From Candidatus Doudnabacteria bacterium (GTDB lineage Bacteria; Patescibacteriota; Doudnabacteria; UBA920; O2-02-FULL-48-8), in contig JACPKU010000006.1 in assembly GCA_016186915.1 (NCBI GenBank), positions 80,921 to 144,920 of the forward strand: 64,000 nt of DNA, given 5' to 3'. The translations under genes were made by a program, and so were the position numbers. Below are positions 3,370-56,929 of the stretch, one piece after another; position 1 is the first letter of the stretch, and the number at the start of each line of letters is the position of its first letter. Below the pieces are notes generated by a model that worked only from the letters and a program-made list of their open reading frames with translations, made no database searches and had not been told where the DNA came from.

Positions 3370-3557
3370 CATATATTTGAGTTCGGCACTGTCTGCAAAC
3401 TATCGGCTGTCGTCCCGTGGAACGCGGACGCAGCCTACTTTCTCGGCCGGATAAACCGGCCTGCGAAGGTTAGTTTGCAGCCAGTCCCTCACTTTATTTG
3501 CTGGCTCGTCTGGGAGGAAAGAAAAGGAAGGAGCTCTTTGGCTCTTTTTTGTTTTAG

Positions 3558-5523: not shown

Positions 5524-5708
5524 AGCAAGTAAAATATATCACGTAAATATATCACGTTGTGTCCGGTCAGCATATTTGTGATTTTGGACAGAATAACAGC
5601 ACGGGAGTAAGTTGACCAAAAAAAGCGATCGCTTTTTTTGGTCAACGAGGGGTTTCGACACTGTTGCGAACGCTGTTTGTGCGACGGCTGTTTGCGCGAC
5701 GCTGTCTG

Positions 5709-5737
5709 TTGATTTTGTGGTTTGGTTGTGGTATAAT
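5709..5737 (+). promoter_or_regulatory. sigma70-type promoter upstream of subtilase gene
   Basis: ttgatt -35, 17-nt spacer, extended -10 tgGTATAAT (5732..5737). Confidence 0.45.
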
Positions 5738-5931
5738 GTATATATAAATTTCGCGAGGAAGAAATAAACAAGAGTTTGACTCGATTGACCCTTTGACCCG
5801 CCTGCCAGACCGGCAGGCTAGCTCAGAGATCAATTGTTGTCTGAGCGGAGTCGAAGACTAAAATAGTATTTTTTTGACAATTTGATTAGGATTTCATAAA
5901 CTACAACCCCATTTAAAATAGGCTTATCCAC

Positions 5932-7935
5932 ATGTTTAAACAACTGCAATTTATCCTAATTTTTACAATGGTTTTGTCAGTGGCAGCTCCAGCGGCTGCA
6001 GCGCCTTTAGATATTTTTGGCAATAATGGAACAGAAATATTGGTTAAACTGAAAGATTCCACTGAAAGCAGTTTAGAGTCTGTTTTGGCTCGACACCAAG
6101 TGGCCGGTTTACGCAGTCATTTGCGCGGAATCAGGGCCTTGAGTTTTTCGTCTTCGGTTAATTTAAGCGCCAAACTAGCGGCGCTTAACGCCGATCCAGA
6201 CGTAGAGTTTGCCGAACCGAATTACACGGCTCATGCTTATTCCCTGCCTAATGATCAGTATTTTAATTATCAATGGAACATGGGTACAGCCGGCCTGAAT
6301 ATGCCTGAAGTTTGGAATCAGGCCACAGGCTTGGGCGCGGTGGTGGCAGTGATTGACACCGGGGTGGCCTATGAAAACTACCGCAGTTTTATCAAAGCTT
6401 CAGATTTCGAAAATACCAGATTTGTTCCCGGATATAATTTTGTCCGAAACTTCAGTCATGCCAATGACGATAATGGCCACGGCACGCATGTAGCAGGGAC
6501 AATTGCCCAAAGTACTAACAACGGCACAGGAGTGGCCGGAATGGCTTATAACGCCCAAATTATGCCTCTCAAGGCCCTAGATTCAGCAGGTTCCGGCAAA
6601 TATTCCGATATAGCCGATGCTATAGTTTGGGCCGCTGACCGCGGAGCAAATATCATCAACCTCAGTCTTGGCGGGCCTTATCCATCAGAAACAATGCGTC
6701 AGGCTTTGGAATATGCGAAATCAAAAGGGGTTTTGATTGTGGCGGCCACAGGAAATGACGGGGCCAAATCTGTGGGCTACCCAGCGGCTTATGATGATTA
6801 TGTTTTGGCAGTGGGCGCAACCAGATACGACAAGACAGTTACAGCTTACAGCAACCAAGGCCAAGCCTTGGACGTAGTAGCCCCCGGCGGGGATACGAAG
6901 GTGGATCAGGATGGCAATGGCTATGGGGACGGGATTTTACAGCAGACGTTTACCTCGGGTCCCAAAAATATGGGATATTTCTTTTTCCAAGGCACGTCCA
7001 TGGCCACCCCGCACGTGGCAGGATTAGCAGCCCTACTAGTTGAAAAGGGGATTACTAATCCAGATGAATTGCAAAACATAATCCAGGCTTCAGCTGACAA
7101 TTTATATACTTCAGGCTGGGATTCTGCTTCTGGTTGGGGACTTATTAATCCGCTCAAGGCGTTGGAGTTAGCAGTGGAAAACCAAGCAGAAACCATTCCG
7201 GACCCTGATCCGGAATCTGATTCTGGGGAAGATCCTGCATCAAGTGCGGGATGGGAAGAGGAACCTCAAGTGTCAGAACCTGAGCAACAGCCTGAACCTA
7301 ACAAAAAACCTGTTGCTAAATTTAATAGTCAATCAGAGGGGTTGATAGGCGAAGCCATAAATTTTGACGCCTCTGCTTCCACAGACGAGGACGGCAGTAT
7401 TACCAATTTTGCCTGGGATTTTGGGGACGGCTCATCTGCCAGCGGTGCGAAAATAAGCCATAGTTATTCAAAATCCGGCACATATCTCGCAACTCTTACA
7501 GTTACTGACAATGCCCAGGATTCAGCCAGTTTTTCCGCGAATATCAAAATTCTAGAGCCAGAGCAGAAGAAATTTATGCATGTGTCAAGTATTGATCTGG
7601 CTGCCCGGGGCAGTTTTCTTAGAATCAGCGCCAGCGCTACTGTCAAAATCACTGATTCACAAGGAAAACCAGTAAGAAATGCCACGGTTTCAGGGCAATG
7701 GGATGGCTTATCCAGCGGCTCCCAAACTCTCAACACCAACTCCAGAGGCGAAGCAACTTTTTCTTCAGACCGGATTTGGCGCCAATCAGGAGAATTTATA
7801 TTTTCTGTCAAATCAGTGAGCCACGAAGAGTATGAATATAATCCACAAAACAACGAAAAGTCGCGGGAATCAGTGCAGATCGGCAGTTCCAGATCATTCT
7901 CGCTCAGCGACAAAGTTCGCGGACTTATGAACTAA
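5932..7935 (+). CDS. secreted subtilisin-like serine protease (peptidase S8) with N-terminal propeptide and C-terminal PKD domain
   Basis: Signal peptide; catalytic triad motifs VAVIDTGV (Asp), HGTHVAGTIA (His), GTSMATPHVAG (Ser); PKD-like segment AKFNSQSEGLIGEAINFDASASTDEDGSITNFAWDFGDGS...TYLATLTVTDN. Confidence 0.9.
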   Translation: MFKQLQFILIFTMVLSVAAPAAAAPLDIFGNNGTEILVKLKDSTESSLESVLARHQVAGLRSHLRGIRALSFSSSVNLSAKLAALNADPDVEFAEPNYTAHAYSLPNDQYFNYQWNMGTAGLNMPEVWNQATGLGAVVAVIDTGVAYENYRSFIKASDFENTRFVPGYNFVRNFSHANDDNGHGTHVAGTIAQSTNNGTGVAGMAYNAQIMPLKALDSAGSGKYSDIADAIVWAADRGANIINLSLGGPYPSETMRQALEYAKSKGVLIVAATGNDGAKSVGYPAAYDDYVLAVGATRYDKTVTAYSNQGQALDVVAPGGDTKVDQDGNGYGDGILQQTFTSGPKNMGYFFFQGTSMATPHVAGLAALLVEKGITNPDELQNIIQASADNLYTSGWDSASGWGLINPLKALELAVENQAETIPDPDPESDSGEDPASSAGWEEEPQVSEPEQQPEPNKKPVAKFNSQSEGLIGEAINFDASASTDEDGSITNFAWDFGDGSSASGAKISHSYSKSGTYLATLTVTDNAQDSASFSANIKILEPEQKKFMHVSSIDLAARGSFLRISASATVKITDSQGKPVRNATVSGQWDGLSSGSQTLNTNSRGEATFSSDRIWRQSGEFIFSVKSVSHEEYEYNPQNNEKSRESVQIGSSRSFSLSDKVRGLMN

Positions 7936-8120
7936 ACTTCAACAGTTTATCCACAAATTATTAACTTCTCAAATCAAATTCTTAGAAAAACAAAAGAAAA
8001 CAAAGACTTTACAAGAAAATTAATTCAGGATATGGTTTTTTAGCGAACCGATATTTGTTTCAGCTGGCTTGTGGAAATCTAAACTAACCTTTAAGATAAA
8101 CTTCAAAGAAACACCATAAT

Positions 8121-8510
8121 ATGGCTGAAGAAAAGATGACAAATTGCCCGAAATGCGGGAAACCCATACTCAACGGCGGTTTGTTTACTTCTCCGGCCAA
8201 GTTCAACATCAAGTGCCCCTGGTGCCAAGCCACGCTGCAGATCAATATTCAGCCCAGAATCGTTACCGAAGTGATAAAGCTAGGCAATGGTGAAACCCCA
8301 AAAAATGGCGATCCGGTCAGACATGTGGTAAGATCAGAAAAGGCAGAATCAGGAGAAGATGTTGACGATATTTTTACAGGGTTATATTCTATGCAAGAAC
8401 CTATGCAGAAGAAAGAAGAACATCTTAAACCAGGAATACCCTACAAACTGAACGGAAAAGGAATTAAGTTTGTTGGGTACTTGTACCCAGACGATAGGGA
8501 ATCAGGGTAG
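8121..8510 (+). CDS. zinc-ribbon domain protein (hypothetical)
   Basis: CPKCGKP...CPWCQAT four-Cys ribbon at N-terminus; followed by hairpin terminator. Confidence 0.45.
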   Translation: MAEEKMTNCPKCGKPILNGGLFTSPAKFNIKCPWCQATLQINIQPRIVTEVIKLGNGETPKNGDPVRHVVRSEKAESGEDVDDIFTGLYSMQEPMQKKEEHLKPGIPYKLNGKGIKFVGYLYPDDRESG

Positions 8511-8598
8511 TTAATATTTTTAAAAATTGTATTTTCCCCTCGACAAGCTCGGGGTGAATATACACATACGAAGCGGACTACGTGTGCCGCGGGACTAC

Positions 8599-8660
8599 GA
8601 GAGCCCACCTTTGCTAGAAGAACTTTTCAGTTTTTCTATGAAGGTGGGCTCTCGTTTTTT
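8599..8660 (+). terminator. putative terminator hairpin with long loop
   Basis: gagagcccacctt ... aaggtgggctctc 13-bp stem followed by gtttttt. Confidence 0.45.
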
Positions 8661-8890
8661 ACAGGAATTACGTCTGAGCATCTGCCACATTCGTGGTCTG
8701 TCTAATACGAATCGCTGGCTGTTCTTTTCTCGTTCGTGGATTGATACGAATGATGCGAATGACCTAATTTTTGGGCAAGCGATAAAAACGGATCCGGTAG
8801 TGAAATTTAATATGAAATTTACAGCCGCAGGCTGATTAAATTTCTACTACCGGGAAAGGTCGGTCCTAATTAAGAACTAGGAGAAAATAT

Positions 8891-9496
8891 ATGAAAAGGT
8901 TTATTGCAGGCGCAGGAATAGTTGCTCTGGCTCTAGTATCCACAGGGGCTATGGGGGCGACGATCAGTGGCGTTTCAGATTCTTCCACAGCAACTTCCAT
9001 TGCCAGTTGGCTGATCTCGGTGATGATGACCAATAACAACAATGCCGTGATTACCAATAACGTTACTTCCACAGCCAATTCCGGCGGCAACACGTTTGTT
9101 TCCGCGGACGACCAGGAAGGCACGGAGCTCGTTACTGGCGATGCCAATGCCGTAACTTTGGTGGAAAACGCCGCAAACAACAACTTTGTGGAAGAAAACT
9201 ATGAATCAGTCGATGGCGCGGATAACACCATTGAGGACATTACTGACAGTTCCACTGCCACTGCCGCCAGTTCAGATACCCTGGAAAATGAGATTTTGAA
9301 TAACAACGATGTAGAAGTGGAAAACAATGTTGACGCAATGGCTGACACCGGCAGCAACTCGGTAACTTCAGGCGACAGCCTCAAAGGTACCAGAGCTACT
9401 ACTGGAATCGCGGGAGCGGCTACTGGCGTGTCCAACTTATTCAACGTGAATATCAAAGAGATTCAAAGAACAATTTCATCTCGCGTAAGACCGTAA
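8891..9496 (+). CDS. secreted Asn-rich repeat protein, paralog 1
   Basis: Signal peptide MKRFIAGAGIVALALVSTGAMGA; NNNxVxTNNVTSTANSGGNT and DSSTATAASSDTLENEILNNNDVEVENNVD modules; conserved C-terminal tail NVNIKEIQRTISSRVRP; paralog of 9683..10303. Confidence 0.7.
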   Translation: MKRFIAGAGIVALALVSTGAMGATISGVSDSSTATSIASWLISVMMTNNNNAVITNNVTSTANSGGNTFVSADDQEGTELVTGDANAVTLVENAANNNFVEENYESVDGADNTIEDITDSSTATAASSDTLENEILNNNDVEVENNVDAMADTGSNSVTSGDSLKGTRATTGIAGAATGVSNLFNVNIKEIQRTISSRVRP

Positions 9497-9682
9497 TAAG
9501 ATTTTCCTCGCAATGCTGAACTCGGTTCAGCATCTCTATAAAAAGATCCTGAACTTAATTCAGGATTGCGGGAGGAAATAACTCTGAAAGGTCTTTTGAA
9601 CAACAACTAATTAAATCCGCCTTTGTCAGGGAATCCATGGGTTCCACTTGCACAGCCGGTTTCGTGAGGGGGTGAAAGTAAA

Positions 9683-10303
9683 ATGAAAAAAATAATCGCA
9701 AGCGTAGGTTTGGCGGCCATGCTTTTGATGGTCGCGGGCGCTGCTGACGCTGCCGTGATCCGAATGGTCAACGACAGCTCCGTGGCAACTTCAGCCGCTA
9801 CTTGGTCAATCTTGGCGAATATCCTTAACAACAACTCTGCGGGTATTCTCAACACCGTTACCTCCACTGGTAACTCTGGCGCTAATACCGTGGTATCAGC
9901 TGATGACCAGACTGGCACAAGCGTGACTACCGGGAACACTGGTGCAGCTTCAGCAGTTGACGGTGCGGCAGGTCCGGGAAACGTAGCAAACACTAACGTT
10001 GTTTCTGAAACTTTGGAAACACCAGACGGCGCGGATAACCTAATCGAGGACGTCGATGATAGCTCTGTGGCTACCACAGCAAGCGCAGACAGCTTGGAGA
10101 ACAACCTTACCAACAACAATGAGGTAGAAGTTGACAACGACGTTGACGGTACCAGCAATTCTGGTACCAATAGTGTGGTTTCAGGCGACAGCTTGACCAC
10201 CACAACGGTATCAACCGGGACTAACCTAGCCGCTTCGTTGCTGTCCCAAGATTTCAACTTGAACATCAAGGAAGTAATCCGAACTATAAGACAACGACCA
10301 TAG
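9683..10303 (+). CDS. secreted Asn-rich repeat protein, paralog 2
   Basis: Signal peptide MKKIIASVGLAAMLLMVAGAADA; same module order and conserved C-terminal NLNIKEVIRTIRQRP; strong RBS gagggggtga. Confidence 0.7.
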   Translation: MKKIIASVGLAAMLLMVAGAADAAVIRMVNDSSVATSAATWSILANILNNNSAGILNTVTSTGNSGANTVVSADDQTGTSVTTGNTGAASAVDGAAGPGNVANTNVVSETLETPDGADNLIEDVDDSSVATTASADSLENNLTNNNEVEVDNDVDGTSNSGTNSVVSGDSLTTTTVSTGTNLAASLLSQDFNLNIKEVIRTIRQRP

Positions 10304-10576
10304 TCTGACTAATAGTCTTGCAAGAAAAAAAATTACTCGTGTGGCCCTGTACCGAAAGGTACAGGGCACGCAGAGTAACTTATGTGTAGTGTAAGATCCT
10401 ACCTTGGTGTGTGGAGCTTCACTTCTAAGGTACTCTTGCAGGATACCCCCGCCAATTTTTGGCGCGGGCAGGTAAGAGTTGATCGCTCTTACCTAAACTC
10501 TACGGGGAGGGGTTAAGGCCCCTCCCTAGAGAGGAAAAATTAGTGAGTAGTTTGTAGTGAGTAGTGAATAAAATCA

Positions 10577-10939
10577 ATGAAAAACATTGCAGAAAAAATT
10601 TCAATTATATTTTTGCTCGCGGCATTCGCTATGCCGAGTTTCGGCAACTTTCGCCTGAGCAGTTTTTTCTCCACACAACCGCAGACAAAAGCCAAGACTG
10701 ATGTGTCCGCCAATGCTAACGCTGACAATGCCAATCCCGGCGAGGTGCAAACCGGGCAGGCGAGCGCTGAAGTCAGTGTCACCACAGTGGTCAATCTGGA
10801 CATAGAGGACGAACAGACGATTTACGTGCAAGCAGAACCGGGAGAGACTAAATCAGAAAGTTCTGTGAGTGAAGAAGAAGAAAGTGATCCCGTATTTAAT
10901 CCTATAAGAGAAAGAATTTTTAGAATGTTGAGAAGATAG
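10577..10939 (+). CDS. small secreted hypothetical protein
   Basis: Signal peptide MKNIAEKISIIFLLAAFAMPSFG; Asn/Ala-rich then acidic tail; directly upstream of giant ORF. Confidence 0.5.
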   Translation: MKNIAEKISIIFLLAAFAMPSFGNFRLSSFFSTQPQTKAKTDVSANANADNANPGEVQTGQASAEVSVTTVVNLDIEDEQTIYVQAEPGETKSESSVSEEEESDPVFNPIRERIFRMLRR

Positions 10940-10959
10940 TAATCAGTTTGGTCCTATCA

Positions 10960-13900
10960 ATGAATCCAACCATAAAACAGCTCAAGAAATATATCCAAGC
11001 CTTAGATTGCCGAGGCTTGGTTTGGTTGTTTTATGCCGGCTGTTTGGTGGGGTGGTTTGGGTATTTGAAGATTAAAAATAGGACCAATAGGTCGGATAGG
11101 GTTTATAGGTCGGATGGGTCGGGTAGGATTGATAGGATTTATAGGATTGATAGGAATAATAGGTCTGATAGGTCGGATAGGACAAATAGGTCGGATATGC
11201 CGGTGTCGGATAGGGTTTATAGAAATAATGAGATAAATAGGTCGGATAGGAATAATGAGATAAATAGGTCGGATAGGCCGGATATGTCGGATAGGTTTGA
11301 TAAGACCTATAGGACATATTTGACCTATAGGACTAATAAGACTTCTCAAGCCTTGCGTATGGTTAGGCACAAAAAAGCGTACAGCATACAGAGCATAGCG
11401 TATAGTTTTGAAAAAGAGGTGAGGGCACGGATTGCCGGGTTTGTGCTGAAAAACACTTCGGGAGAAGAGGTTTTGCCTGTGGCCTCAAACATCGCCTTAC
11501 TTGCTCGATTGCACTTCGTGTTTTTCAAAGAGCGGGCAAGCCTCGCTTATTTAGATATTAAAAAATACGCCCGCAGGCGATCACGGTATTATCTGCGCAA
11601 AGCCAAGAAGGTCTATGTGCCGGCCGGGATTAGTTTTGCACAAGCTGTGTTTAATCTGAGCTTGGTGGCGCTGGCAGTGTTCGGGTTTGTGGTGGTTATT
11701 ATCGGAAAAACTTTTGCAAAAATTGTGGCGGTGAGCATTGCATCTTTGTCATTGCGAAGCCGAAGGCTGCGGCAATCTTTCATCATGCTAAGTATTAGAT
11801 TGCTTCGTCGCTACCGCTCCTCGCAAAGACTTTTGATTATTCGTCTTCGCGAGCGATCGAAGATCGCGTGGCAATCTATTTCTAGACAAGGGTCCAGATT
11901 GCTTCGTCGCGCTTTGGTCGAAGCAAATCAGCTCCTCGCAATGGTGAGAGCGGCCTTGTTCGTCACCGTGCCATCGCGAGCGCGAAGCGCGAAACGATCT
12001 GTTCTGGAAAGCTTTGACGCGGCCAGAGAACAGAATGTAGTTTTGTATAAATACCTCAGGCACGAATATAAAATAACCAGAAACAGAATTAGACGTCGAT
12101 TTTATAAAAGAGTTGGGCAGATTTTGGTCTGTGCAAAGGTCACCTTCGTTGTAACAACGAAGGTGACCTTTGCAGCCTTACTGTTACTGTATATACGAGT
12201 GAATATACATTATTCCAAGCTAAATTCCACTTTAAGCCGGAAAGCTGCGTCGGCATATATTTACCTTTCACCAAGGGTTGCCCGGTTTGCCAGATTGAGC
12301 ATTGACCGGTTTGAACAGTCAGTCGGCGCCATGGGACGAGCGGTTTTGGCCGGGCTTGATTATTCTCAGAAACTTCTTAGTTTCTTGATTCGTTTAGGGC
12401 GGATTGGGCTGGCGTGGATGGCGGCAGTACTGGTCCCAGTGTCTGAATTTGCAGACATTTGGATTTTTGAGCCTGTCTTAAAAATTCTACAAAGAAAAAT
12501 TGGTTTTATCCGCAAAGCCATGGCGGCAGGGGTTTTGGTGTTTATGGTTGTGGGAAGTATCAGTCCGGCTTTGGCTGTGGTGGAGATCACGCCGCAATCA
12601 ATTGTGGAATTTACTGACGCTGATTTAGATCCGGAAAACCCGGTGCTGCAGCAGGAAGCAAGTGTTACGGGCAATGAGGGCAGTAATACTGTGGCGGACA
12701 TTCAAAAGAAAGTTGAGAAGATTGTGGATTCAGCGACAGGCGATGCAGACAGTTCTGATTCAGCGACCGCAGATGGCAACAGTGAACAGATATCAGATAA
12801 TAGCGCAGACCCTTCAACTTCGGCTGACGACCCCGCTCAGGGATCAGAAGGCGAACCTATCGGGGCCGAAGAGCCGGGATCTGATCCGGGACAGACCCCT
12901 GCTTCCGCAGGGATGGAAGAGAATGCAGAGATAGAAGAGGGCGCAGGGGTGGGAGAAGAAACAGGCTCGCTCTTACTAACGCCCTGCACGGTGTCCAATT
13001 CTATGGAATTGGACAGTGAGGGGTCGCCAGTGGAAGATGTCCAAGCAGACGGGTTATCAGAGGAGTTAGAGATTGTCGAAAGCCAAGCAGACGCTGCGGG
13101 AACAACTGATGCGTCGGAGCAGGTTGTTGCAGGAGACGATGAAGATGAATTAGATTCTTCTGTGCCGGGAACGAATCAGCACGACAGCGAAGCAGGAGAC
13201 GCGGAATGCGCTCAACAAGAGCAGGTCCAGGAACAAAGTGAGGCTGGGGTGCAGGCTATCAATCCTAATGACTCTTCACTTCTGGACAGTAAACAGATTA
13301 AGAAAAACATTGTCGAGATCGTCAATACCAACAGCATCAAAGTGACCAACCAAGTGGATTCGGGTTCTTTAACTGGCCAGAACACGGTTTCGGCCGGAGA
13401 CAGCGGGAAGGATGTATTTTTGGGCTCTGGCAACATCAACATTCACGCCAATGTTTTGAACGTGGTCAACACCAATTTGTATAATTCCAAGATTGTAGAG
13501 ATTGCGGAGAATTTCAACAATCTCACGGCCGATGTATTGCTCAACCATCCGGAAACCAGACCCGCGGAATTAACCCAGGATCTGGTTAATTATGTTTGCG
13601 GGTCGTCGCTGACTTGCGAAAGTTTGAGTTCGTTTAATTTGACCAATAAAAACAATGCCGAGGTGGAGAACAACGTCAATGTGTTGGGAAACAGCGGACA
13701 GAATCTCCTGGAGAACATCAAAGAACGGGGCACGATAAGAAGTGGAGACATCAATGCTTTGGTCAATGTTTTGAATATTGTAAATAGTAACTTGGTCAAT
13801 TCCCGCTGGACCATTGCCTCGATCAATGTGTTCGGGGACTGGGAAGGCGATTTGGTCCTGCCGTCCGAACTTTATTTTACTGACTTTTTCCAGCTGGGCG

Positions 13901-16900
13901 CGACTGACAATTCTGATATCAAAATTGAAGACATCAAAAAAGTTCTGATCAACGTCAACAATGACAATGACGTGGAGGTTCAGAACAACGTACTGGTCAA
14001 TTCTGACAGCGGCAAGAACTCGATTGAAGCGACCAAGAGCGCGGACGGCAAAGGCGGCGGGCTGGAAAACGACAAGATCGGCACGGGCGAGAGCCGCGGC
14101 GAGTCCAACGTAAAAAACTATGTCAACACCAACGTGTTCAACGGCAAGTGGTATCTGGGCATGGTGAACACTTTGGGTGCTTGGTCAGGGGACGTGTATT
14201 CTCTGCCAGAGCGAGTGGCGCTGGGCACCACGCCGACTGGTCTGTCCTTCTTCTCATCGAACAGCAAGGATTCAGATTTGGCTTATCAATTGTTTGAAGA
14301 GACGATTGCCGACATCAATCGGACCGACAACACTTTGATCGATATCCAAAACCAGAACAAAGCCAAGATCGTGAACAATGTGGATTTGGGCGTGCTGTCG
14401 GGTGAGAACGGCATTAAAGGCAATGAGATGAACGTAGAGGAGAGCAGCATCTTCTCCGGCAATACTTACGCGCTTGCCAATATTTTGAATTTTGCCAATA
14501 CCAATCTTATTAACGCGGATTTGAACATTGGCTTGGTCAATGTTTTCGGCAGATGGAACGGGAATGTGCTGTTCGGCTTTCCTGATCTGACGGTGAGCCA
14601 AACCACCAGGCAGGAATTCCCAAAAGAAAAGAACCAGCAGGTAATTTATGATTTGACTTACTCGAACATAGGATCATCCTCGATGATCGGCGGAAGTCTT
14701 GAATGGCATTATGACAGCAATTTACTGCGTTTGGATTCAGTGGATCCGGCAGTAAGTTATGAGAAAAAACTGCCAGGCGTGGTGGAGTTTGATTTGGGCA
14801 GGGTCGGGCCGAAGAGCAGTCGAACGCTGGCTGTAAAACTGACCACTCTCAAAGATCTGGCAGTAAATACCGAAATAGAGAGTTATGCCCGTGTATTTGG
14901 TTTGGGACCGGAGAGGGTGAAAGAGAACAATGAAAGCGTGTTGGTAACAAAAGCCACGACTACGACTGGTTCTTCGGGGCCCCCGCCAAGTAATGATCCG
15001 CCGCCAGGCAATGACCCGCCAGCGAATAACGATAACGGAAGCGATCCGAATAATGATGACGCGGCAGGCGGAGATAATAATCAGGAAACAGAAAACAGTA
15101 ATCAAGACGATCCTTCGAATGAAGGAGGTAGTGATCCGAACCAAGAACAAGAAGAGCAACCAGAAGAACAGCCGCAGGATGGAACACAAAATCAACAGCC
15201 GCAGGATAATCAGAGTTCAGATCCAGATAACAGTCAGCAAGAAAACAACCAGCAAGAACAACAGAATGACCAAAACAGCAACCAGAATAAGAATACCAAC
15301 CAGCAGCAACAGCAGAACAAACAAGGTCAGAACCAGCAGCAGCAAAATCAGCAACAGCAGCAAAATCAACGGACTGCTTCCGGGCTGATCCGGGTTTACA
15401 AAACCAGTAATGCCCTAAGCCAAGGAGTGAAGCCTGGTGAGCCGGTGGAGTTTACCTTGATCGTGGACAATGACGGCGTGGATGCGGTATTTAATGTGGT
15501 GTTGTATGATACGCTTAGAGGACCGGATGGCGCGACTATAACCACGCGCAAGTTCCCGCTGGGCAGGATGGAGTCGGGCGAGGAAGTGGTTTTGGTTTAT
15601 GAGATTGATGCCAATCCTTTTGCTCCTGCCGGCACTTACACCAACACAGCTTATGTTGAGGCCTTGAATTTCCAACTGCGGCCAATAAAGTCACAGTCCA
15701 CGGCCCTTAGCAGTTTTATCTTGATTAACCCCAATCCAGAGCCGGTGCCTGAAGATGACGAAGCTGAACTGGTTAAGGATAACAAGCAGGATGAAGAACA
15801 GCAGAAACAAATAGAAGAAGACAAGCAAGACGAAGAGCAGAAAGACGATTCTCTGGAGGAAAATGTTGGAAAAGACCAAGAGAAAGAAGAAGTGGGACTG
15901 TTGAGCGAGAAGGATAAAAACAAGCCAATCAACACAAATACCGTCAAGGGAGGGAGGTTCTCAAGAACCAACCCTGAAGCGAACGCGGTGGCTTCCGCTT
16001 CTCTGCCGTTTGGTGAGTTGACTCCCGCGGCACAAGCCGAGCTTATAGACATCATTCCGTTGTTGGAAAATTCACCTGTCCGCGAAGGAGTGAGGAGCGA
16101 TTCTGCCCGCCAGATGACAATGTTTGTAATCATCGCGGCCCTCATGGGTTTGGGCTACGCCGCGGCAAATTTGGTAAATAGGCTTAAACAAGCAAAAGTA
16201 CAAAAATTAACCAACAACAACATGCCAGGCAAAGACAAAATCCTGCTGCTGATCCTAGCTTTGGTGCTCGGAAACAACGGGATGGGCGCGGTTCTCGATA
16301 TTAATCTCAGTATTCCGACAGCGCACGCCGCAGCACAAAGCTGTACCACTCCGACCGTAATTTCCTTCCCGTTCGCAGTGCAGGGCAACACGGGCGGCGT
16401 GGATCTGAATTCGAATGCGAAAGTAACCGGCAATGTTTACTCCAACGCCAACATTAATGGACAATTATTCGCAAAGGTCATAGGGAACGCAGCGGCAGTA
16501 GGAACGATTACAGATACACAAGTGAGCGGGACAGCGACCACTGGCGCGGCGCCTGCAGGTATGCCGGCAGTGAACGCAGCGGATTGGAAAGCCTCAGCGC
16601 TCTTGGGCGGGACAACTGGCAGCGTTAGTTTTCCAGTCAATAGCAGTGGAAATAACTTGGGACCAAAGAAGATCGACGGCGATTTGATTTTGAATGATAA
16701 TTCCGAAGTGCAAGTTAACGGCACGATTCACGTGACCGGTGAGGTAGTGGTGGGTGCAAACGCTAAACTTCATGTTAATCCTGTTTTAGGATCTTTGGGA
16801 ACTGTAATTATTGCCGACGGGAAAATTAACATTGATGGCAACGGGCACGTGGATGGGACGGGGGGAGGCGGATTCATGCTCATGATCTCTTTAAGCTCAG

Positions 16901-19665
16901 GCAGTGACGCGATTAATCTACAGCCAAACTTTACCTCTTCCACCGCGGTGTTTTATTCGCTCAATGACGGGCTGATGGTCGGTTCGAACTCACAAATTGT
17001 AGGCGCCTATGGAGAACGTGTCACGGTGCAGAGCAATGCCAAGGTTTCTCACGTGCCGGGCTTGCAGTTCGCCACCTTTGTCTGTCCGCCGCCAGCGCAA
17101 ACACCTAACATCACCGTGACCAAAGCAGCAGACAAACCCTCAATACTTGCTGGGGAAACTATAACTTTTACTTTAGAAGTGGAGAATAGCGGGACGGTGG
17201 CAGCGAATAATGTTACGCTCACTGATATTTTATCACCTGAATTTGAGTTCGTCGGTTCAACGCCCAGTCCGACCACAACGATTGTGACCGGTTCTGGCAC
17301 AGAGTTGAAATACAGCTTAAGTGAAGTTGGGGTCAATGAAACTAAAACCGTAACGATTGAAGCCAAAGCGGTGAGCAGTATCACTACCAGCATAGTTGTA
17401 GAAAACAAAGCTGTAGCCACAGGTGACAATTTTACACCCGAAGACTCCAACACTGTTGACGTGACTATCAACCCTATCCCCGCACCAGTGATGCCAATAA
17501 TCACGGTGACAAAATCTTCTGACAAATCTACAGTCTTGGCTGGCGATACAGTTATATTTACTTTGGAAATAGCAAACAGCGGCACGGCGGACGCGACCAA
17601 TGTGGTGTTGAGCGATACTCTGACTTTAGAATTTGAATTTATCTCCAGCACCCCAAGTCCTACAAGCAATACGGTTACCGCGACCGGCACAGAGCTGACT
17701 TTCGATCTGGGAACCGTGGCGATGGGCAGCTCTTCCACCATTACAATTGAAGTAAAAACTGACAGATTCGAATATCGTAAATGTCACAATCGATCCTTTG
17801 CCACTGCCTCCTATACCAACCAATCCTGTTATCAATGTTACCAAATCCGCAGACCATCCATCAGTTACGGCTGGCGATACAGTTATATTTACTTTGGAAA
17901 TAGCAAACAGCGGCACGGCGGACGCGACCAATGTGGTGTTGAGCGATACTCTGGGTTTAGAATTTGAATTTATCTCCAGCACCCCAAGTCCTACAAGCAA
18001 TACGGTTACCGCGACCGGCACAGAGCTGACTTTCGATCTGGGAACCGTGGCGATGGGCAGCTCTTCCACCATTACAATTGAAGTAAAAACTGACAGATCG
18101 CAACCACTACTTTGGTGGAAAATAAAGCGGTGGCAGACGGCGACAATTTTGGATCCGAAGAATCGAACACCGTGGAGCTAACAATTAACCCGCTTTCTGG
18201 AGGCGGTGGCACACCCACGGGTCCTACGATTACCAAAAGTGCCTCAAACACATCGGTAGTCGCAGGACAGGAGATTACGTATACCATTGAAGTTGAAAAT
18301 GATTCGTCCGACACTTTGGTGGATGCGGCGGTAAGGGACATCCTGGACCAGAATCTTGAATTTGTTTCTGCTAATCCACCTCCTACTACCAACACGACTG
18401 TTTTGGGTGTAACCACCTTAACTTGGGAAATAGGCGATCTTGGCGTAGGAGAGAAGTTTACGATTGAACTAAAGGTAGAGGTAAAAAGCGGAACTGTTTC
18501 CGGAACTATTATTGAAAATGACGCTGAATTGAGCGCTGATCAGTTCAACCCCATCACTGCAGGTGCCCCTGACGTAGAAGTAACCAGTCCGCCATCCGGC
18601 GGCGGCAGTGGCGGCGGCGGCAGTGGCGGCGGCGCAATTATGCCGCCCCCAAACTATGAGGCAAATATGGAGTTTGTGTTTGCTGACCCCAAGGTTAAAG
18701 GTGAAGATTACGGGGAATCGGTAACCATTACCAACACTGGCAGTATAGCTTTGAGCCCTGGGGATTTGACAGTGACTTTTCCGCTAAGCCTGAACGTGGT
18801 CACTCTCAGTCCGTCTGCCATATCATTTGCAGGCAATGTCGCGACTTGGTCTGTCCCGGTAATTCCAGTGGGCGGCTCCTATACCGTGTCCTTCACCGTT
18901 AAACCCAATGCAACGGGAACCAATATTATTACCGTGGCCAATTATTACATTGGCACGCAACAGATCGCAGTAGCGAGCGCTTCAGAGAACGTGGGAGATG
19001 TGGCGGGGGAAACTGCGCCTGAACTTCCCAGAACAGGCGCGGGTGCGGCTTATTTGCTGCTTGTGAACCTACCACTGTTATTTATGAGAAGGCTGAAGAA
19101 AGCTTTGGCTGCTTTGTTTTTGTTGGCGGCTGGCTTCTTGGCGCTTAATTTTAGTTATTTTAAGGAAGTGGTCAGCTTTTCGCTCAACAAACAACGTCAA
19201 GAGCAGGAACAGCTTTTGGTGGAGGAAGAACTGCCGCCCAATACTTTGACCGTGCCGAGTTTGGGAATTATGGTGCCGATCATCCTTGATTCAGGCAGCT
19301 CTGAATCGGAATTTCAGGAAGCCTTGCGAAACGGGGTGGTGCATTATCCCGGCACGGCGCAGGTCGGGCAGGCAGGCAACAGTTATATATTCGGGCATTC
19401 ATCTGATTATTTCTGGAGCAGAGGGAATTACAAGACCGTGTTTGCGGTTTTGCCCAAGATCAATATTGGTGATGAGGTTATGGCTACAGATGCCGAAGGA
19501 CAAGAGTACTTTTATCAGGTCAAAGAGACCAAAGTCGTCGGCCCTTCAGATCTGTCAGTGCTGGAACAGGATTACACCAAGAAACGATTAACTTTACAAA
19601 CTTCGTATCCCATAGGGACGGCCTTGAAGCGGTTTATAGTAATTGCTGAACTGAAAGAAGAGTAA
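10960..19665 (+). CDS. giant (~2900 aa) surface protein: Arg-rich tripeptide-repeat N-region, TM/signal-like segment, acidic region, four ~85-aa Asn-rich repeats, DUF11-type repeats, LPRTG sorting motif, C-terminal sortase-like domain. Frame interrupted by a compensating frameshift pair at about 17760 and 18095.
   Basis: Track ORFs 10948..17967 (frame 1), 17798..18181 (frame 2) and 18112..19665 (frame 1) are colinear. Frame 1 is stop-free for 1570 nt upstream of the first clear signal-like segment (MAAGVLVFMVVGSISPALA at 12520), which is far beyond chance. DUF11-like units (VTKxxDKxxVLAGDTVIFTLEIANSGTADATNVVLSDTL) repeat. LPRTG followed by a hydrophobic segment and RRLKK. Nothing was checked by a domain search. 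Confidence 0.6.
11078..11340 (+). repeat. 9-bp tandem minisatellite (~29 units, consensus (g/a)ATAGGTCG) lying in-frame inside the giant ORF
   Basis: aataggacc aataggtcg gatagggtt tataggtcg ... read directly; encodes tripeptide repeats (NRS/DRV/YRS...). Confidence 0.9.
19084..19665 (+). CDS. sortase-like domain (possible independent start at ATG 19084) with Ser in place of the catalytic Cys
   Basis: MRRLKKALAALFLLAAGFLALNFSYF signal-anchor; IFGHSSDYF (sortase His motif); LTLQTSYPIGTALKRFIV aligns to the TLxTC...R signature with C->S (codon tcg). Confidence 0.6.
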   Translation: MRRLKKALAALFLLAAGFLALNFSYFKEVVSFSLNKQRQEQEQLLVEEELPPNTLTVPSLGIMVPIILDSGSSESEFQEALRNGVVHYPGTAQVGQAGNSYIFGHSSDYFWSRGNYKTVFAVLPKINIGDEVMATDAEGQEYFYQVKETKVVGPSDLSVLEQDYTKKRLTLQTSYPIGTALKRFIVIAELKEE

Positions 19666-51664: not shown

Positions 51665-51738
51665 TGGGGAGTAGCCAAGCGGTAAGGCAACGGACTCTGA
51701 ATCCGTCATCGTAGGTTCGATCCCTACCTCCCCAGCCA
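51665..51738 (+). tRNA. tRNA-Gln (anticodon CUG)
   Basis: UGGGGAG acceptor / CUCCCCA, D-arm GCCAAGCGGUAAGGC, anticodon stem ACGGA/UCCGU loop CUCUGAA, T-arm GUAGGUUCGAUCCCUAC, encoded CCA; near-identical in architecture to E. coli tRNA-Gln. Confidence 0.85.
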
Positions 51739-54018: not shown

Positions 54019-54711
54019 ATGGGAGAAAACAAAAAAAAACCGCATCCAGCCGAAGGTCATAGAGGAAGATTAAGAGAAAGGTTTATACAAAGTGGGTTAG
54101 ATGCTTTTCTTGATTATGAAATTATTGAGCTGCTTTTGACTCTAGGCACTCCCCGAAAAGATTGTAAACAAATGGCAAAAGAGTTAATAAAAAAGTTTGG
54201 AGGTCTTAGAGAAGTGCTTGATGCATCACAACAAGAACTTTCTAAAACCGAAGGCATTGGCCTTATGAATTCTTTCGGATTAAAGCTTTTTCAATCAATG
54301 GCTGAGAGATATGAGCGTGAGAAAATTGTTCAGAAAATTGTTCTCGAGACGCCTCAAAAAGTTGCTAAATATTTACAAGAGAAAATCGGGAGAGAAGAAA
54401 AAGAGCATTTCATTACATTGTGTCTTGATACGAAAAATAATCTTATCAAAATAATCGAAATTTCGATTGGCACATTAAATGAAAGTCTGGTTCATCCAAG
54501 AGAAATCTTTAAAGAAGCTGTGGTAAATCACGCCGCTCAAGTTATAGTTTCCCATAACCATCCTTCAGGCGATATCCAGCCCTCGAGTCAGGATTTATTA
54601 GTCACAAAGCGGTTAGTAGAAGTAGGTAAAATTTTAGGAATTGAACTTTTGGATCATATTATAGTAAGTCGGAGTAACTTTTTGAGTTTTAGAGAGCAGA
54701 ATCTAATTTAA
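54019..54711 (+). CDS. radC: RadC-like JAB/MPN domain protein
   Basis: HhH N-domain; JAMM motif HNHPSG...S.QD. Confidence 0.8.
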   Translation: MGENKKKPHPAEGHRGRLRERFIQSGLDAFLDYEIIELLLTLGTPRKDCKQMAKELIKKFGGLREVLDASQQELSKTEGIGLMNSFGLKLFQSMAERYEREKIVQKIVLETPQKVAKYLQEKIGREEKEHFITLCLDTKNNLIKIIEISIGTLNESLVHPREIFKEAVVNHAAQVIVSHNHPSGDIQPSSQDLLVTKRLVEVGKILGIELLDHIIVSRSNFLSFREQNLI

Positions 54712-55072: not shown

Positions 55073-56929
55073 ATGAGACTATACGAAGGCACTGTTCAAG
55101 ATTTTAATTATAATGTTTCTCACAATCAGATTGCAGATAAGGTCGCTGAAGCCTACGCCACTTATTATAAAAAAAGACCTGCTGAATCTGAGTACCGTTC
55201 TTGGCAACAATCGTTGAGTCTTTTTAATTATGCATTGATAAATAGTGGTTTGACTTCAAACTGGATTATTATAGAGTACGAATTGCCCTATTCAACCAGA
55301 AGAATTGATGTCTTACTTTTTGGCAAAGGTCATGAAAATAAGGATAATATTGTTCTTATTGAACTGAAACAGTGGTCGAACGAACACGTTCACGATAGTA
55401 CTGTTGAGGGTAATATTGTTGTAGATTATGGAATTTTTAAACGTGAGGTGGCCCATCCCTCCTTACAAGTCCAAGGATACCATTTTGATTTAATAGATTT
55501 CTTTAAAATATTTGAAGAAAAAAAATCGCCTCAATTGAATTCGTGTGTATACTGCCATAACTATTCGAAAAGTAACGGAGAAAAAGTCCTTTTTTATCCT
55601 AAATTTGAGAAGCTTATAGAGAAGTATAAAGTTTTCAGCAAAGAAGATGCCGCGGACTTAGGTGAATATTTAAAATACAGATTAAGCCAAGGAGAGGGAC
55701 TTGAAGTTTTTAACCGATTTATTCACAGTCAAATAAGACCTACTAAGAAGTTGCTTGATCACACAAGCGAAATGATAAATAAGCAACAGATTTTCACACT
55801 GATTGATGACCAAATCGCTGCTTACAATGGAATAATGCACAAGGCCAAACAGTTAGTTAAGCTGAAAGTGAAATCAGTAATCATTGTGAAGGGCGGACCT
55901 GGCACCGGCAAATCTGTAATTGCTTTGGAGGTGATGGGAGAATTATTGAGACGAGGGTACGTAGTATTTCATGCTACAGGCTCGTCAGCATTTACAAACA
56001 CCTTACGTAAGGTAGTTGGTAGCAGAGCGAATAAATTATTCAAATTTTTCTTTAATTTTACGCAGGAAAAAGAAAATTCGATTGATGTAATTGTGTGTGA
56101 TGAAGCGCATAGATTGCGCGCACATAGTAATGATTATGGTGTACCTTTTAAATTTAGATCTAAAAATCCTCAAATAGAGGATATAATAAAGCCCGCCAAA
56201 CTTTCGGTTTTTTTCCTTGATGAATTCCAAGTCGTAAGGCCAAAGGAAATTGGAAGTGTGGATTTAATCAGAGGAGCAGCAAAAATTTTAAGTGTTAATG
56301 ATTCAAACATTCTTGAGTATGAGTTAAAAACCCAATTTCGTTGCTCCGGTTCTGATGCTTATTTACAGTGGTTAGATAAGATTTTTGGTATACGCGATAC
56401 AGAGATAACTCAATTCGATAAGAAAATGGAATTTAAAATTTTTGATTCTCCAACTTTGCTTAAAACTGCCATTGATGCAAAAAACCTTGAAAAACCTAAC
56501 TCAGCTAGGATAACAGCTGGTTTCTGCTGGCCATGGAGTGAACCAAGGCCGGACGGTAGTTTGGTCAACGATGTCAAAATCGGTAATTTTGAAATGCCAT
56601 GGGAAAATAAAAAGGAGTTTTGGAAATGGGCGACAGATACAAGTGGTCAAGAACAAGTTGGTACAGTTTATACTGCTCAGGGATTTGAATTCGAATACAT
56701 CGGGGTAATTATTGGAAACGATTTAGTTTATGATCGTGTGACAAAAAAATGGAAAGCAATTCCTGAAAACTCTTACGATAAAGCGGTTGTAAGAAATAAT
56801 CAGGAATTAACGCAACATTTAAAACATGTTTACCGCGTTTTGTTGTCCAGAGCTCATAAAGGAGTATATGTTTATTTTATGGATAAAAACACCGAAGAGT
56901 ATTTTAAGATAAGTTTAGAAAATCGATGA
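55073..56929 (+). CDS. PD-(D/E)xK nuclease fused to DUF2075 (Schlafen group-3-like) SF1 helicase/ATPase
   Basis: N-terminal RRIDVLLFGKG...IVLIELKQW (D...ELK nuclease motif); Walker A GGPGTGKS, Walker B VIVCDEAHRL, motif VI-like TVYTAQGFEFEYIGVIIGND characteristic of DUF2075. Confidence 0.65.
   Translation: MRLYEGTVQDFNYNVSHNQIADKVAEAYATYYKKRPAESEYRSWQQSLSLFNYALINSGLTSNWIIIEYELPYSTRRIDVLLFGKGHENKDNIVLIELKQWSNEHVHDSTVEGNIVVDYGIFKREVAHPSLQVQGYHFDLIDFFKIFEEKKSPQLNSCVYCHNYSKSNGEKVLFYPKFEKLIEKYKVFSKEDAADLGEYLKYRLSQGEGLEVFNRFIHSQIRPTKKLLDHTSEMINKQQIFTLIDDQIAAYNGIMHKAKQLVKLKVKSVIIVKGGPGTGKSVIALEVMGELLRRGYVVFHATGSSAFTNTLRKVVGSRANKLFKFFFNFTQEKENSIDVIVCDEAHRLRAHSNDYGVPFKFRSKNPQIEDIIKPAKLSVFFLDEFQVVRPKEIGSVDLIRGAAKILSVNDSNILEYELKTQFRCSGSDAYLQWLDKIFGIRDTEITQFDKKMEFKIFDSPTLLKTAIDAKNLEKPNSARITAGFCWPWSEPRPDGSLVNDVKIGNFEMPWENKKEFWKWATDTSGQEQVGTVYTAQGFEFEYIGVIIGNDLVYDRVTKKWKAIPENSYDKAVVRNNQELTQHLKHVYRVLLSRAHKGVYVYFMDKNTEEYFKISLENR

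Follow-up and report, generated by a model that had tools for sequence, protein, structure and literature searches.

The stretch of DNA analysed here (the window) comprises 64,000 nucleotides (64 kb) of a Candidatus Doudnabacteria bacterium (assembly GCA_016186915.1, contig JACPKU010000006.1, positions 80,921 to 144,920 of the forward strand), and all coordinates below refer to it. The genes in question encode a secreted S8 peptidase, small secreted proteins, a giant composite open reading frame (ORF) and an ORF that ends in a sortase domain (Table 1). Within the giant ORF we distinguished protein 1, which carries four copies of an Asn-rich module, and the beginning of protein 2, which carries DUF11 repeats. 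The two meet at a pair of membrane helices, where two genes appear to have been joined by the loss of a stop codon.

Table 1. Coordinates of the genes, domains and segments discussed (aa, amino acids; ATG, start codon; nt, nucleotides; pLDDT, predicted local distance difference test; TM, transmembrane helix)
Feature	Position	Strand	Basis or remark
Secreted subtilisin-like S8 peptidase with PKD domain	5932..7935	+	Pfam Peptidase_S8 197 bits; PKD_4
small1	8891..9496	+	signal peptide; two copies of the module truncated to the hairpin (aa 46-104 and 136-190)
small2	9683..10303	+	paralog of small1, 54% identity, layout as small1
Third small secreted protein	10577..10939	+	half module, aa 45-84
Giant ORF	10948-17967	+	2339 aa, composite
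N-terminal extension of giant ORF	10948..12519	+	524 aa, Arg-rich, partly hydrophobic
9-nt tandem array within extension	11055-11347	+	~30 units, ATAGGTCGG-like
Protein 1 signal peptide (MAAGVLVFMVVGSISPALA)	12520..12576, aa 525-543	+	Kyte-Doolittle 2.28
Acidic low-complexity spacer, E/S/D/A-rich	12577..13302	+	composition
Module 1	13321..13542	+	i-Evalue 6e-12; without FGxWxG tail
Module 2	13642..13860	+	i-Evalue 3.5e-22
Module 3	13954..14199	+	i-Evalue 1.6e-15
Module 4	14344..14571	+	i-Evalue 6.3e-18
Beta-sandwich domain, CLIPPER/CBM2-like by predicted structure only	14587..14904	+	AlphaFold2 strands at residues 440-543, pLDDT ~90
Q/N/P/D-rich low-complexity spacer	14920..15372	+	composition
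DUF11/CLIPPER domain	15400..15669	+	PF01345 34.4 bits (cut-off 24.6); NPCBM_assoc match too
E/D/K-rich spacer	between DUF11/CLIPPER domain and TM1	+	composition
TM1, putative ancestral C-terminal anchor of protein 1	16120..16176, aa 1725-1743	+	Kyte-Doolittle 2.04; homologous to L002 and L005 terminal anchors
Basic cytoplasmic loop (NRLKQAKVQKLTNNNMPGKDK)	16177..16239	+	contains lost-stop position and protein 2 ATG (16222)
TM2, in protein 2 signal peptide (16240..16335)	16240-16296, aa 1765-1783	+	Kyte-Doolittle 2.17
Sequence spanning fused junction			KVQKLTNNNMPGK
Protein 2 N-terminal beta-rich domain	16336..17097	+	no Pfam match; 48-50% identical to L002 and L005
Protein 2 DUF11/CLIPPER repeats	17101..18098	+	PF01345 at 17101-17817
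Rest of protein 2	18112..19665	+	one frame: DUF11, CARDB-like, LPRTG, membrane helix, MRRLKK loop, second membrane helix, sortase
LPRTG sorting signal	19024-19038	+	LPRTG-AGAAYLLLVNLPLLF-MRRLKK; classed as LPXTG substrate
Sortase domain	19246-19653	+	Pfam Sortase PF04203 85.8 bits (cut-off 26.6)

The Asn-rich module and its family

The module was detected with a profile of 72 positions, seeded with module 2 and iterated on homologues, which matched the giant ORF four times (aa 792-865, 899-971, 1003-1084 and 1133-1208) and gave no significant match to shuffled controls (E > 2). Pairwise identity among the four modules was 34-44%, and their Asn content was 17-22%, compared with 4.3% in control proteins. 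The core spans 73-82 aa, with start-to-start distances of 107, 104 and 130 aa (family median spacing, 111). A VxxFGxWxG tail was present in three of the four, module 1 being the one without it. BLAST of the module region against itself returned zero pairs at E ≤ 10, so the repeat is visible to profiles only.

Domain scans of the window proteins against Pfam and NCBIfam gave no match for the module, Pfam matched the modules in 0 of 53 family members, and the best hit of the profile among PDB sequences was not significant (E 0.12). Assignment to a known domain was rejected on these grounds. A phmmer search with the module likewise gave no significant hit (best E 0.017), and the literature searched contained no description of it. 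Among 1.84 billion cluster representatives, the profile retrieved 3,397 at E ≤ 1e-3 and 1,510 at E ≤ 1e-30 (clusters at 50% identity). The best 150 of the 3,397 matches were mostly 500-1,200 aa long (typically 600-1000) and contained 4-6 modules. An N-terminal signal-peptide-like segment was found in 83% of the 189 family members starting with M, a C-terminal membrane helix followed by a basic tail in 78%, and an LPXTG-like motif in two. All large-protein homologues bearing names belonged to the Patescibacteria, or candidate phyla radiation (CPR), under the labels Paceibacterota, Levybacteria and 'Patescibacteria group'. Judged by these sequence searches, the module is a new, uncatalogued domain family, yet one that is widespread in Patescibacteria.

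A scan of GTDB species genomes yielded 239 related loci, the best 80 of which were retrieved; neighbourhood counts were taken over 81 loci. The closest relatives among these best 80 are L002, L004, L005, L006 and L007, whose identity to the window over the modules is 71% (in a full-length alignment), 65%, 58%, 53% and 49%, respectively. Many loci that bear the operon, for example L011, L031, L043 and L051, go under labels such as 'uncultured Gammaproteobacteria', 'Pseudomonadales', 'Binatia' or 'Verrucomicrobiia' in third-party (TPA) assemblies. Such labels on Patescibacteria-type loci are probably the result of mislabelling or mis-binning.

AlphaFold2 predicted an all-beta structure for the region 13270-14937, using 53 aligned sequences (pLDDT 81.6; predicted template modelling score, pTM, 0.76). 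The strands in the module region are 21, 11 and 9 residues long; those of ~21 residues open modules 1, 2 and 4, and the first strand of module 3 is split. Residue co-variation was analysed by mean-field direct coupling analysis (DCA) in 1,031 non-identical modules, considering the top 30 couplings at a separation of at least 8. Eleven of these 30 fell on the antiparallel register i + j = 50-58 (~54; background 10%), joining positions 2-8 with 47-51, 16-19 with 35-37, and 21-24 with 32-33, and a second short ladder was observed at i + j ~119-120. Separations of 16-20 were not enriched (2/30, background 13%), and there was no i→i+18 signal. Together, the model and the couplings indicate for each module a long hairpin of antiparallel beta-strands (positions ~2-51) with a short VNxFGxWxGD strand pair; all four are predicted to pack as a single all-beta body. 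A beta-solenoid architecture was rejected on the evidence of the long strands and the antiparallel ladder.

Foldseek searches of PDB and BFVD with the model returned only beta-sandwich matches of 100-130 columns (CBM2, CLIPPER 9ifr and cohesins; E ≥ 1e-4). Its output gives no aligned query region, and the matches probably fall on the C-terminal sandwich rather than on the modules, which would make the module likely to be a new fold. The match to CLIPPER 9ifr (E 1.2e-3, TMt 0.63) can be placed on 14587-14904 only as probable; this segment had no Pfam match at E ≤ 1, and its sequence did not qualify it as a DUF11/CLIPPER domain.

The small secreted proteins encoded upstream contain parts of the same module. 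At NCBI, small1 (HYW51_01895) and small2 (MBI2607556.1, HYW51_01900) have identical entries, both on a 420-kb contig of a metagenome-assembled Candidatus Doudnabacteria genome. With a profile trained on large homologues only, and 1000 shuffles as control, small1 scored 47.3 bits (shuffle maximum 16.7) and showed two partial copies covering profile positions 1-55. The score of small2 alone was weak (2.6 bits). When the module and the small-protein family were compared profile against profile, the probability was 93.7% (E 1.8e-7). The third small ORF scored 21.4 bits (shuffle maximum 11.2), and its homologue in L005 (8789-9202) also matched the module profile. The small proteins thus comprise the first three quarters of the module (~55 positions), the VNxFGxWxGD tail being absent.

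These results bear on the original prediction, made from the DNA letters and a list of ORFs, which had described a novel ~85-aa repeat in four consecutive copies, shared with two small paralogs and followed by DUF11 units and Q/N-rich linkers. The novelty held, with no match to a known adhesin domain in Pfam, NCBIfam or PDB sequences, though at 3,397 clusters the repeat is not rare. All four copies, which the prediction had picked out where pairwise BLAST does not, were recovered (profile i-Evalues 6e-12 to 3.5e-22), as were a DUF11 domain (PF01345, 34.4 bits at 15400-15669) and, by composition, the linkers. The ~85-aa period fits neither the core of 73-82 aa nor the spacing of 104-130 aa. Sharing with the small paralogs was correct (47.3 bits; 93.7%), with the amendments that they number three and that their copies are truncated to ~55 positions. 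Where it had raised a beta-solenoid or beta-roll, AlphaFold2 gave an antiparallel hairpin and no beta-solenoid.

The helix pair between proteins 1 and 2

No LPxTG-like motif was found in protein 1 before TM1, where the sequence reads ...ENSPVREGVRSDSARQ-MTMFVII. The loop between TM1 and TM2 contains five K/R residues and one D/E, and the TM2 region keeps an A-x-A signal-peptidase site (AHAAA/QSC, the slash marking the cut). Across the junction, the window reads ...AANLVNRLKQAKVQKLTNNNMPGKDKILLLILALVLG...AHAAA/QSCTTPTVISFPF with no stop.

The relatives that have both genes, L002, L005 and L007, all keep a stop at this place. It follows directly after the homologous anchor (...GLGYAxANLR and a basic tail), protein 1 ending in ...IALGYATANLRHRPKEKPKS-stop in L002 and in ...FGLGYAGANLRRRFLGRRR-stop in L005, with L007 alike. 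Protein 2 of the same three loci has its own signal peptide; this aligns with TM2 of the window, and its end immediately precedes the conserved xSCxxPxxISFPF. Only a single TAA separates the two genes in L005, where they lie in one frame. Furthermore, 13 of 13 homologues of the downstream domain stand alone (447-622 aa), which indicates that the fused state is derived.

The fused sequence was recovered a second time. A Logan contig (L082) that another assembler produced, and that is on record for three sequencing runs, matches the window at 100% identity over 5617-17567. The fusion therefore appears to belong to the population rather than to a single assembly. The exact junction sequence was not found in metagenome contigs of the Joint Genome Institute (JGI). 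Dropping one A from the run CAAAAAT (~16196-16202) would give ...VQN-TAA, and one extra A at ~16198 would suffice to explain the loss of the stop.

These comparisons make it well supported, at the level of sequence, that the helix pair consists of the anchor of protein 1 and the signal peptide of protein 2, joined by stop loss, and not of an ancestral polytopic design. Since an anchor helix is followed by a positive loop and a signal peptide, the parts on either side would both remain extracellular. The original prediction had left the choice between two fused genes and a polytopic giant protein. The first is favoured by the separation of the genes in relatives, where the stop follows the anchor in L002, L005 and L007; the second is not, and the contig from the second assembler contains no stop near 16210, where one would have counted as refutation of the prediction.

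Protein 2, the N-terminal extension and the gene neighbourhood

Protein 2 continues past the end of the giant ORF. Residues 2052-2290 matched PF01345 in three stretches (115.8 bits) and TIGR01451 (80.6 bits). The DUF11 copies at 17500-17767 and 17831-18098 are 94% identical and have in common a 1-nt deletion after ...ITIEVKTD; the first additionally misses 64 nt. The giant ORF ends at 17967 because of the frameshift in these repeats, and reading resumes in ORF 18112-19665. Contig L082 breaks at 17567, inside the DUF11 repeat, so that the frameshifts may be assembly errors.

In ORF 18112-19665, no stop separates the LPRTG-bearing substrate part from the sortase, which constitutes a natural substrate-sortase fusion. 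A corresponding fusion is present in L005, from a Yanofskybacteria genome (LPRTG-TM-QVRRK-TM-sortase, 12773-15244, 823 aa, 39% identity to that of the window); in L007, substrate and sortase are separate genes. The sorting signals of the relatives are LPRTG (L002 and L005) and LPNTG (L007). Among the NCBIfam sortase classes, the class D model scored best (56-60 bits), under the cut-offs of 140-165 and under every class cut-off. The literature searched contained no description of natural substrate-sortase fusions.

The N-terminal extension of the giant ORF precedes a signal peptide whose counterparts in the L005, L007 and L009 orthologues, by alignment, are N-terminal. The ORF frame of the extension is free of stops, whereas the two remaining frames have 28 and 55, and its codon usage is gene-like. 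Extensions of 716 and 547 aa in L002 and L004 are equally open and unrelated to that of the window; BLAST among the three detected only a 25-aa basic-plus-hydrophobic start motif (E 0.003) and no nucleotide similarity. The extension is absent in L005, L006, L007 and L009, and L003 has stops at that place. No relatives of it were found in JGI metagenome contigs. An open frame is thus maintained without sequence conservation. In frame, the 9-nt array encodes R-S-D and R-I-D repeats, and in one other frame the consensus unit would contain TAG. When the giant ORF was looked up by exact sequence in a protein collection, neither of two candidate start sites gave a match.

The window, L002, L004, L005, L006 and L007 all have an S8 peptidase, a Zn-ribbon protein, small1, small2, a module protein, a beta-rich/DUF11 protein and a sortase in this order, and the hairpin-only small paralogs number two or three. 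Across the 81 loci, module genes form same-strand paralog clusters. An ORF of the sortase cluster lies at most 2.5 kb downstream of module genes in 28 of the 65 loci with enough flank, and an S8 peptidase lies near them in about 15-16 of 81. The pairing of module genes with a sortase thus reaches beyond the close relatives to Patescibacteria at large. The clade of the window has one or two ~200-aa hairpin-only proteins and one anchored protein of ~1000-1200 aa. In the Microgenomates type, a triad of module proteins is followed by a sortase of 180-230 aa: the first (~420-450 aa) has no anchor, the second (~700-780 aa) has a membrane anchor and a KINLAWLL motif, and the third (~380-395 aa) ends in LPATG, LPVTG, LPISG or GLSDTSG and then a membrane helix. 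Ends of the form GLSDTSG or GLSDTSS in place of LPxTG may represent a variant sortase motif. Operons of this type (L040-L078, for example L046 6816-13370 and L047 6027-13390) also encode two small proteins without a Pfam match, whose clusters occur in 21 and 33 loci.

The sortase family has been described (Meheust et al. 2019, PMC6744442) as enriched in CPR and present nearly throughout the Microgenomates; the passages of that paper on the family name no substrates for it. It is plausible, from the gene order, that the module operon is the cognate system of this CPR-enriched sortase.

A diversity-generating retroelement (DGR) target was considered for the module region and rejected, since the region lies in no direct repeat pair within the 64-kb window; no reverse-transcriptase domain was found among the window ORFs given domain scans. 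In another part of the window, beyond a tRNA gene (51665-51735), the GC content departs from the ~0.46 seen elsewhere, being 0.56 at 52-54 kb and 0.33-0.36 at 54-58 kb. This stretch encodes RadC (54019-54711) and a Schlafen-group-3-type helicase (55073-56929), and up to 58000 it may be an integrated element or a defence island.

Interpretation and comparison with known systems

Patescibacteria, a very large and mostly uncultured group, live attached to other microbes, a lifestyle probably mediated by their surface proteins, most of which are unannotated. We propose, with a probability of about 0.6, that the locus encodes a surface protein of Asn-rich modules that takes part in a sortase-associated assembly, and that the helix pair is a stop-loss fusion of its gene with the next secreted-protein gene. 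Protein 1 has a well-supported architecture: a Sec signal peptide, an acidic spacer, the four modules, two beta-sandwich stalk domains amid spacers (one of them DUF11/CLIPPER by sequence), and a membrane anchor with a basic tail. Held at the membrane, it would display the module body far from it via the flexible spacers, and the hairpin-only small paralogs would join it through beta-sheet contacts. To judge from the order of domains, the anchors and the neighbouring genes, the assembly would be a sortase-associated surface fibril or lattice with a role in the structure of the envelope or in attaching the cell to its host. Loss of the stop between the genes for protein 1 and the LPXTG protein would have turned the anchor, the basic tail and the signal peptide into an in-frame helical hairpin. 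Because the A-x-A site is retained, signal peptidase probably cuts the fusion back into two proteins; alternatively, protein 2 might also be initiated at its own ATG (16222).

Several points weigh against this proposal. The function is argued from architecture and gene neighbourhood alone. Protein 1 has no LPXTG motif, and its own tie to the sortase is one of neighbourhood only. The 524-aa extension, if translated, would mean that protein 1 is not a simple signal-peptide protein. The DUF11 frameshifts together with the stop loss could signify decay rather than a working fusion. The AlphaFold2 model of small1 is too poor (pLDDT 40) to bear on co-assembly with the large protein. Foldseek names no matched part of the model, leaving the new fold of the module unproven.

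The rival explanations are each less likely than this proposal. If the giant ORF were one functional polytopic protein, the hairpin would be a designed, uncleaved membrane re-entry linking two extracellular arms. Such a topology is self-consistent, no stop is present in two assemblies, and the LPRTG-TM-loop-TM-sortase fusion, kept in both the window and L005, shows that the lineage tolerates or uses such fusions. We nevertheless consider a polytopic protein unlikely, as a stop separates the genes in all three relatives that have both, down to 49% identity by way of 71% and 58%, the 13 homologues of the downstream domain stand alone, and both the A-x-A site and the motif of the mature N-terminus, xSCxxPxxISFPF, are retained. 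Pseudogenisation of the whole surface-protein cluster, betrayed by the lost stop, by frameshifts at ~17767 and ~18098 and by an N-terminal extension that would be junk, is a somewhat fainter prospect. It would account for the two frameshifts and the 64-nt deletion in the DUF11 copies, for the unconserved extension and for the failure of either start site tried to retrieve the giant ORF among annotated proteins. However, the 7-kb ORF is stop-free with gene-like codon usage throughout, the modules align over their full length with 71% identity to L002, and the frameshifts, which sit in the 94%-identical repeat where L082 breaks, may be artefacts.

A sequencing or assembly error at the junction, behind which there would really be two genes, appears very unlikely. 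One A fewer in CAAAAAT creates TAA, and the nearby DUF11 repeats show frameshifts of the assembly-prone kind; yet L082, from another assembler and three sequencing runs, has the identical sequence, the junction is unique sequence without a repeat, and the remaining ORFs of the window are clean and tightly packed. The agreement with L082 disfavours an assembly artefact in particular. Least probable of all, to the point of being hardly credible, is that the modules form a curli-like amyloid or a beta-solenoid, with the small paralogs as fibre subunits and the large protein as nucleator in the manner of CsgA and CsgB. The layout of small secreted paralogs with a surface-anchored homologue is analogous, the motifs are rich in N, G, S and T, and the 72 profile positions equal 4 x 18. 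Against these similarities, hhalign with E. coli CsgA (its sequence entered by hand) gave a probability of 0.1% over one aligned column, by which curli or amyloid homology was rejected; moreover, the predicted strands of ~21 residues are not rungs of 4-6 residues, and the couplings are antiparallel (i + j ~54) with no enrichment at separations of 16-20.

Beyond the proposal of a stop-loss fusion in a sortase-associated operon, we tentatively raise a wider and rather doubtful possibility. The module paralog operon, with its secreted, anchored and LPXTG-bearing members, a sortase and often an S8 protease, might be the main sortase-dependent surface structure of Patescibacteria, built on a beta-hairpin fold unseen in solved structures and collapsing in some lineages into a self-processing membrane polyprotein. 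If so, the CPR-enriched sortase would find its missing substrates here, and the operon could account for envelope fibrils or a lattice on the ultra-small Patescibacteria cells. The junctions of the polyprotein would be helical hairpins with cleavage sites for signal peptidase or sortase, including a natural substrate-sortase fusion.

From this locus, a large and hitherto uncatalogued domain family emerges (no fewer than 3,397 clusters at 50% identity), together with a confident model of the module region. The operon, ending in the CPR-enriched sortase of PMC6744442, is a concrete candidate for the targets of that enzyme. Both fusions illustrate how secreted-protein genes can merge via an anchor-plus-signal-peptide hairpin with the topology unchanged, which matters for annotating 'giant' ORFs in reduced genomes. 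Current understanding is not overturned: a new domain family is placed inside a familiar kind of system, and it is a well-defined lead.

The closest parallels are the fibrillar adhesins and other sortase-associated DUF11/CLIPPER proteins of Gram-positive bacteria, which likewise combine a Sec signal peptide, low-complexity spacers, a beta-sandwich stalk, a C-terminal anchor and an adjacent sortase. The LPRTG sorting signal is shared as well, here on the neighbouring protein. In contrast to those adhesins, the present system has an uncatalogued module as its distal repeat, fixes protein 1 by a plain membrane helix rather than through LPXTG, includes genes for hairpin-only small paralogs and belongs to a Patescibacterium. 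Sortase-dependent pilus operons (such as SpaCBA or EbpABC with a class C sortase) resemble the present operon in having a cluster of secreted paralogs with a dedicated sortase immediately downstream and, as in the Microgenomates-type loci, one paralog with LPxTG. They differ in that here each operon has only one LPXTG protein, no pilin motif or isopeptide domain was detected in the modules, one paralog is helix-anchored and one unanchored, and the sortase falls below every NCBIfam class cut-off.

In the curli system, CsgA and CsgB also pair small secreted proteins with a cell-bound homologue and have a repeat in common. Unlike the parallel beta-solenoid of curli, the module is predicted to form a long antiparallel hairpin, and no sequence relationship was found. 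Curli subunits are exported through the outer-membrane channel CsgG with CsgE and CsgF. Patescibacteria have been reported to be without an outer membrane (PMC6744442). Finally, as in other read-through fusions that arise by loss of a stop codon, same-strand neighbours are joined in frame here and are separate in relatives. The present case differs from these in that its junction is an anchor plus a signal peptide, a topologically neutral hairpin with the signal-peptidase site retained, and in that an LPXTG substrate and its sortase meet at a further junction of this kind.

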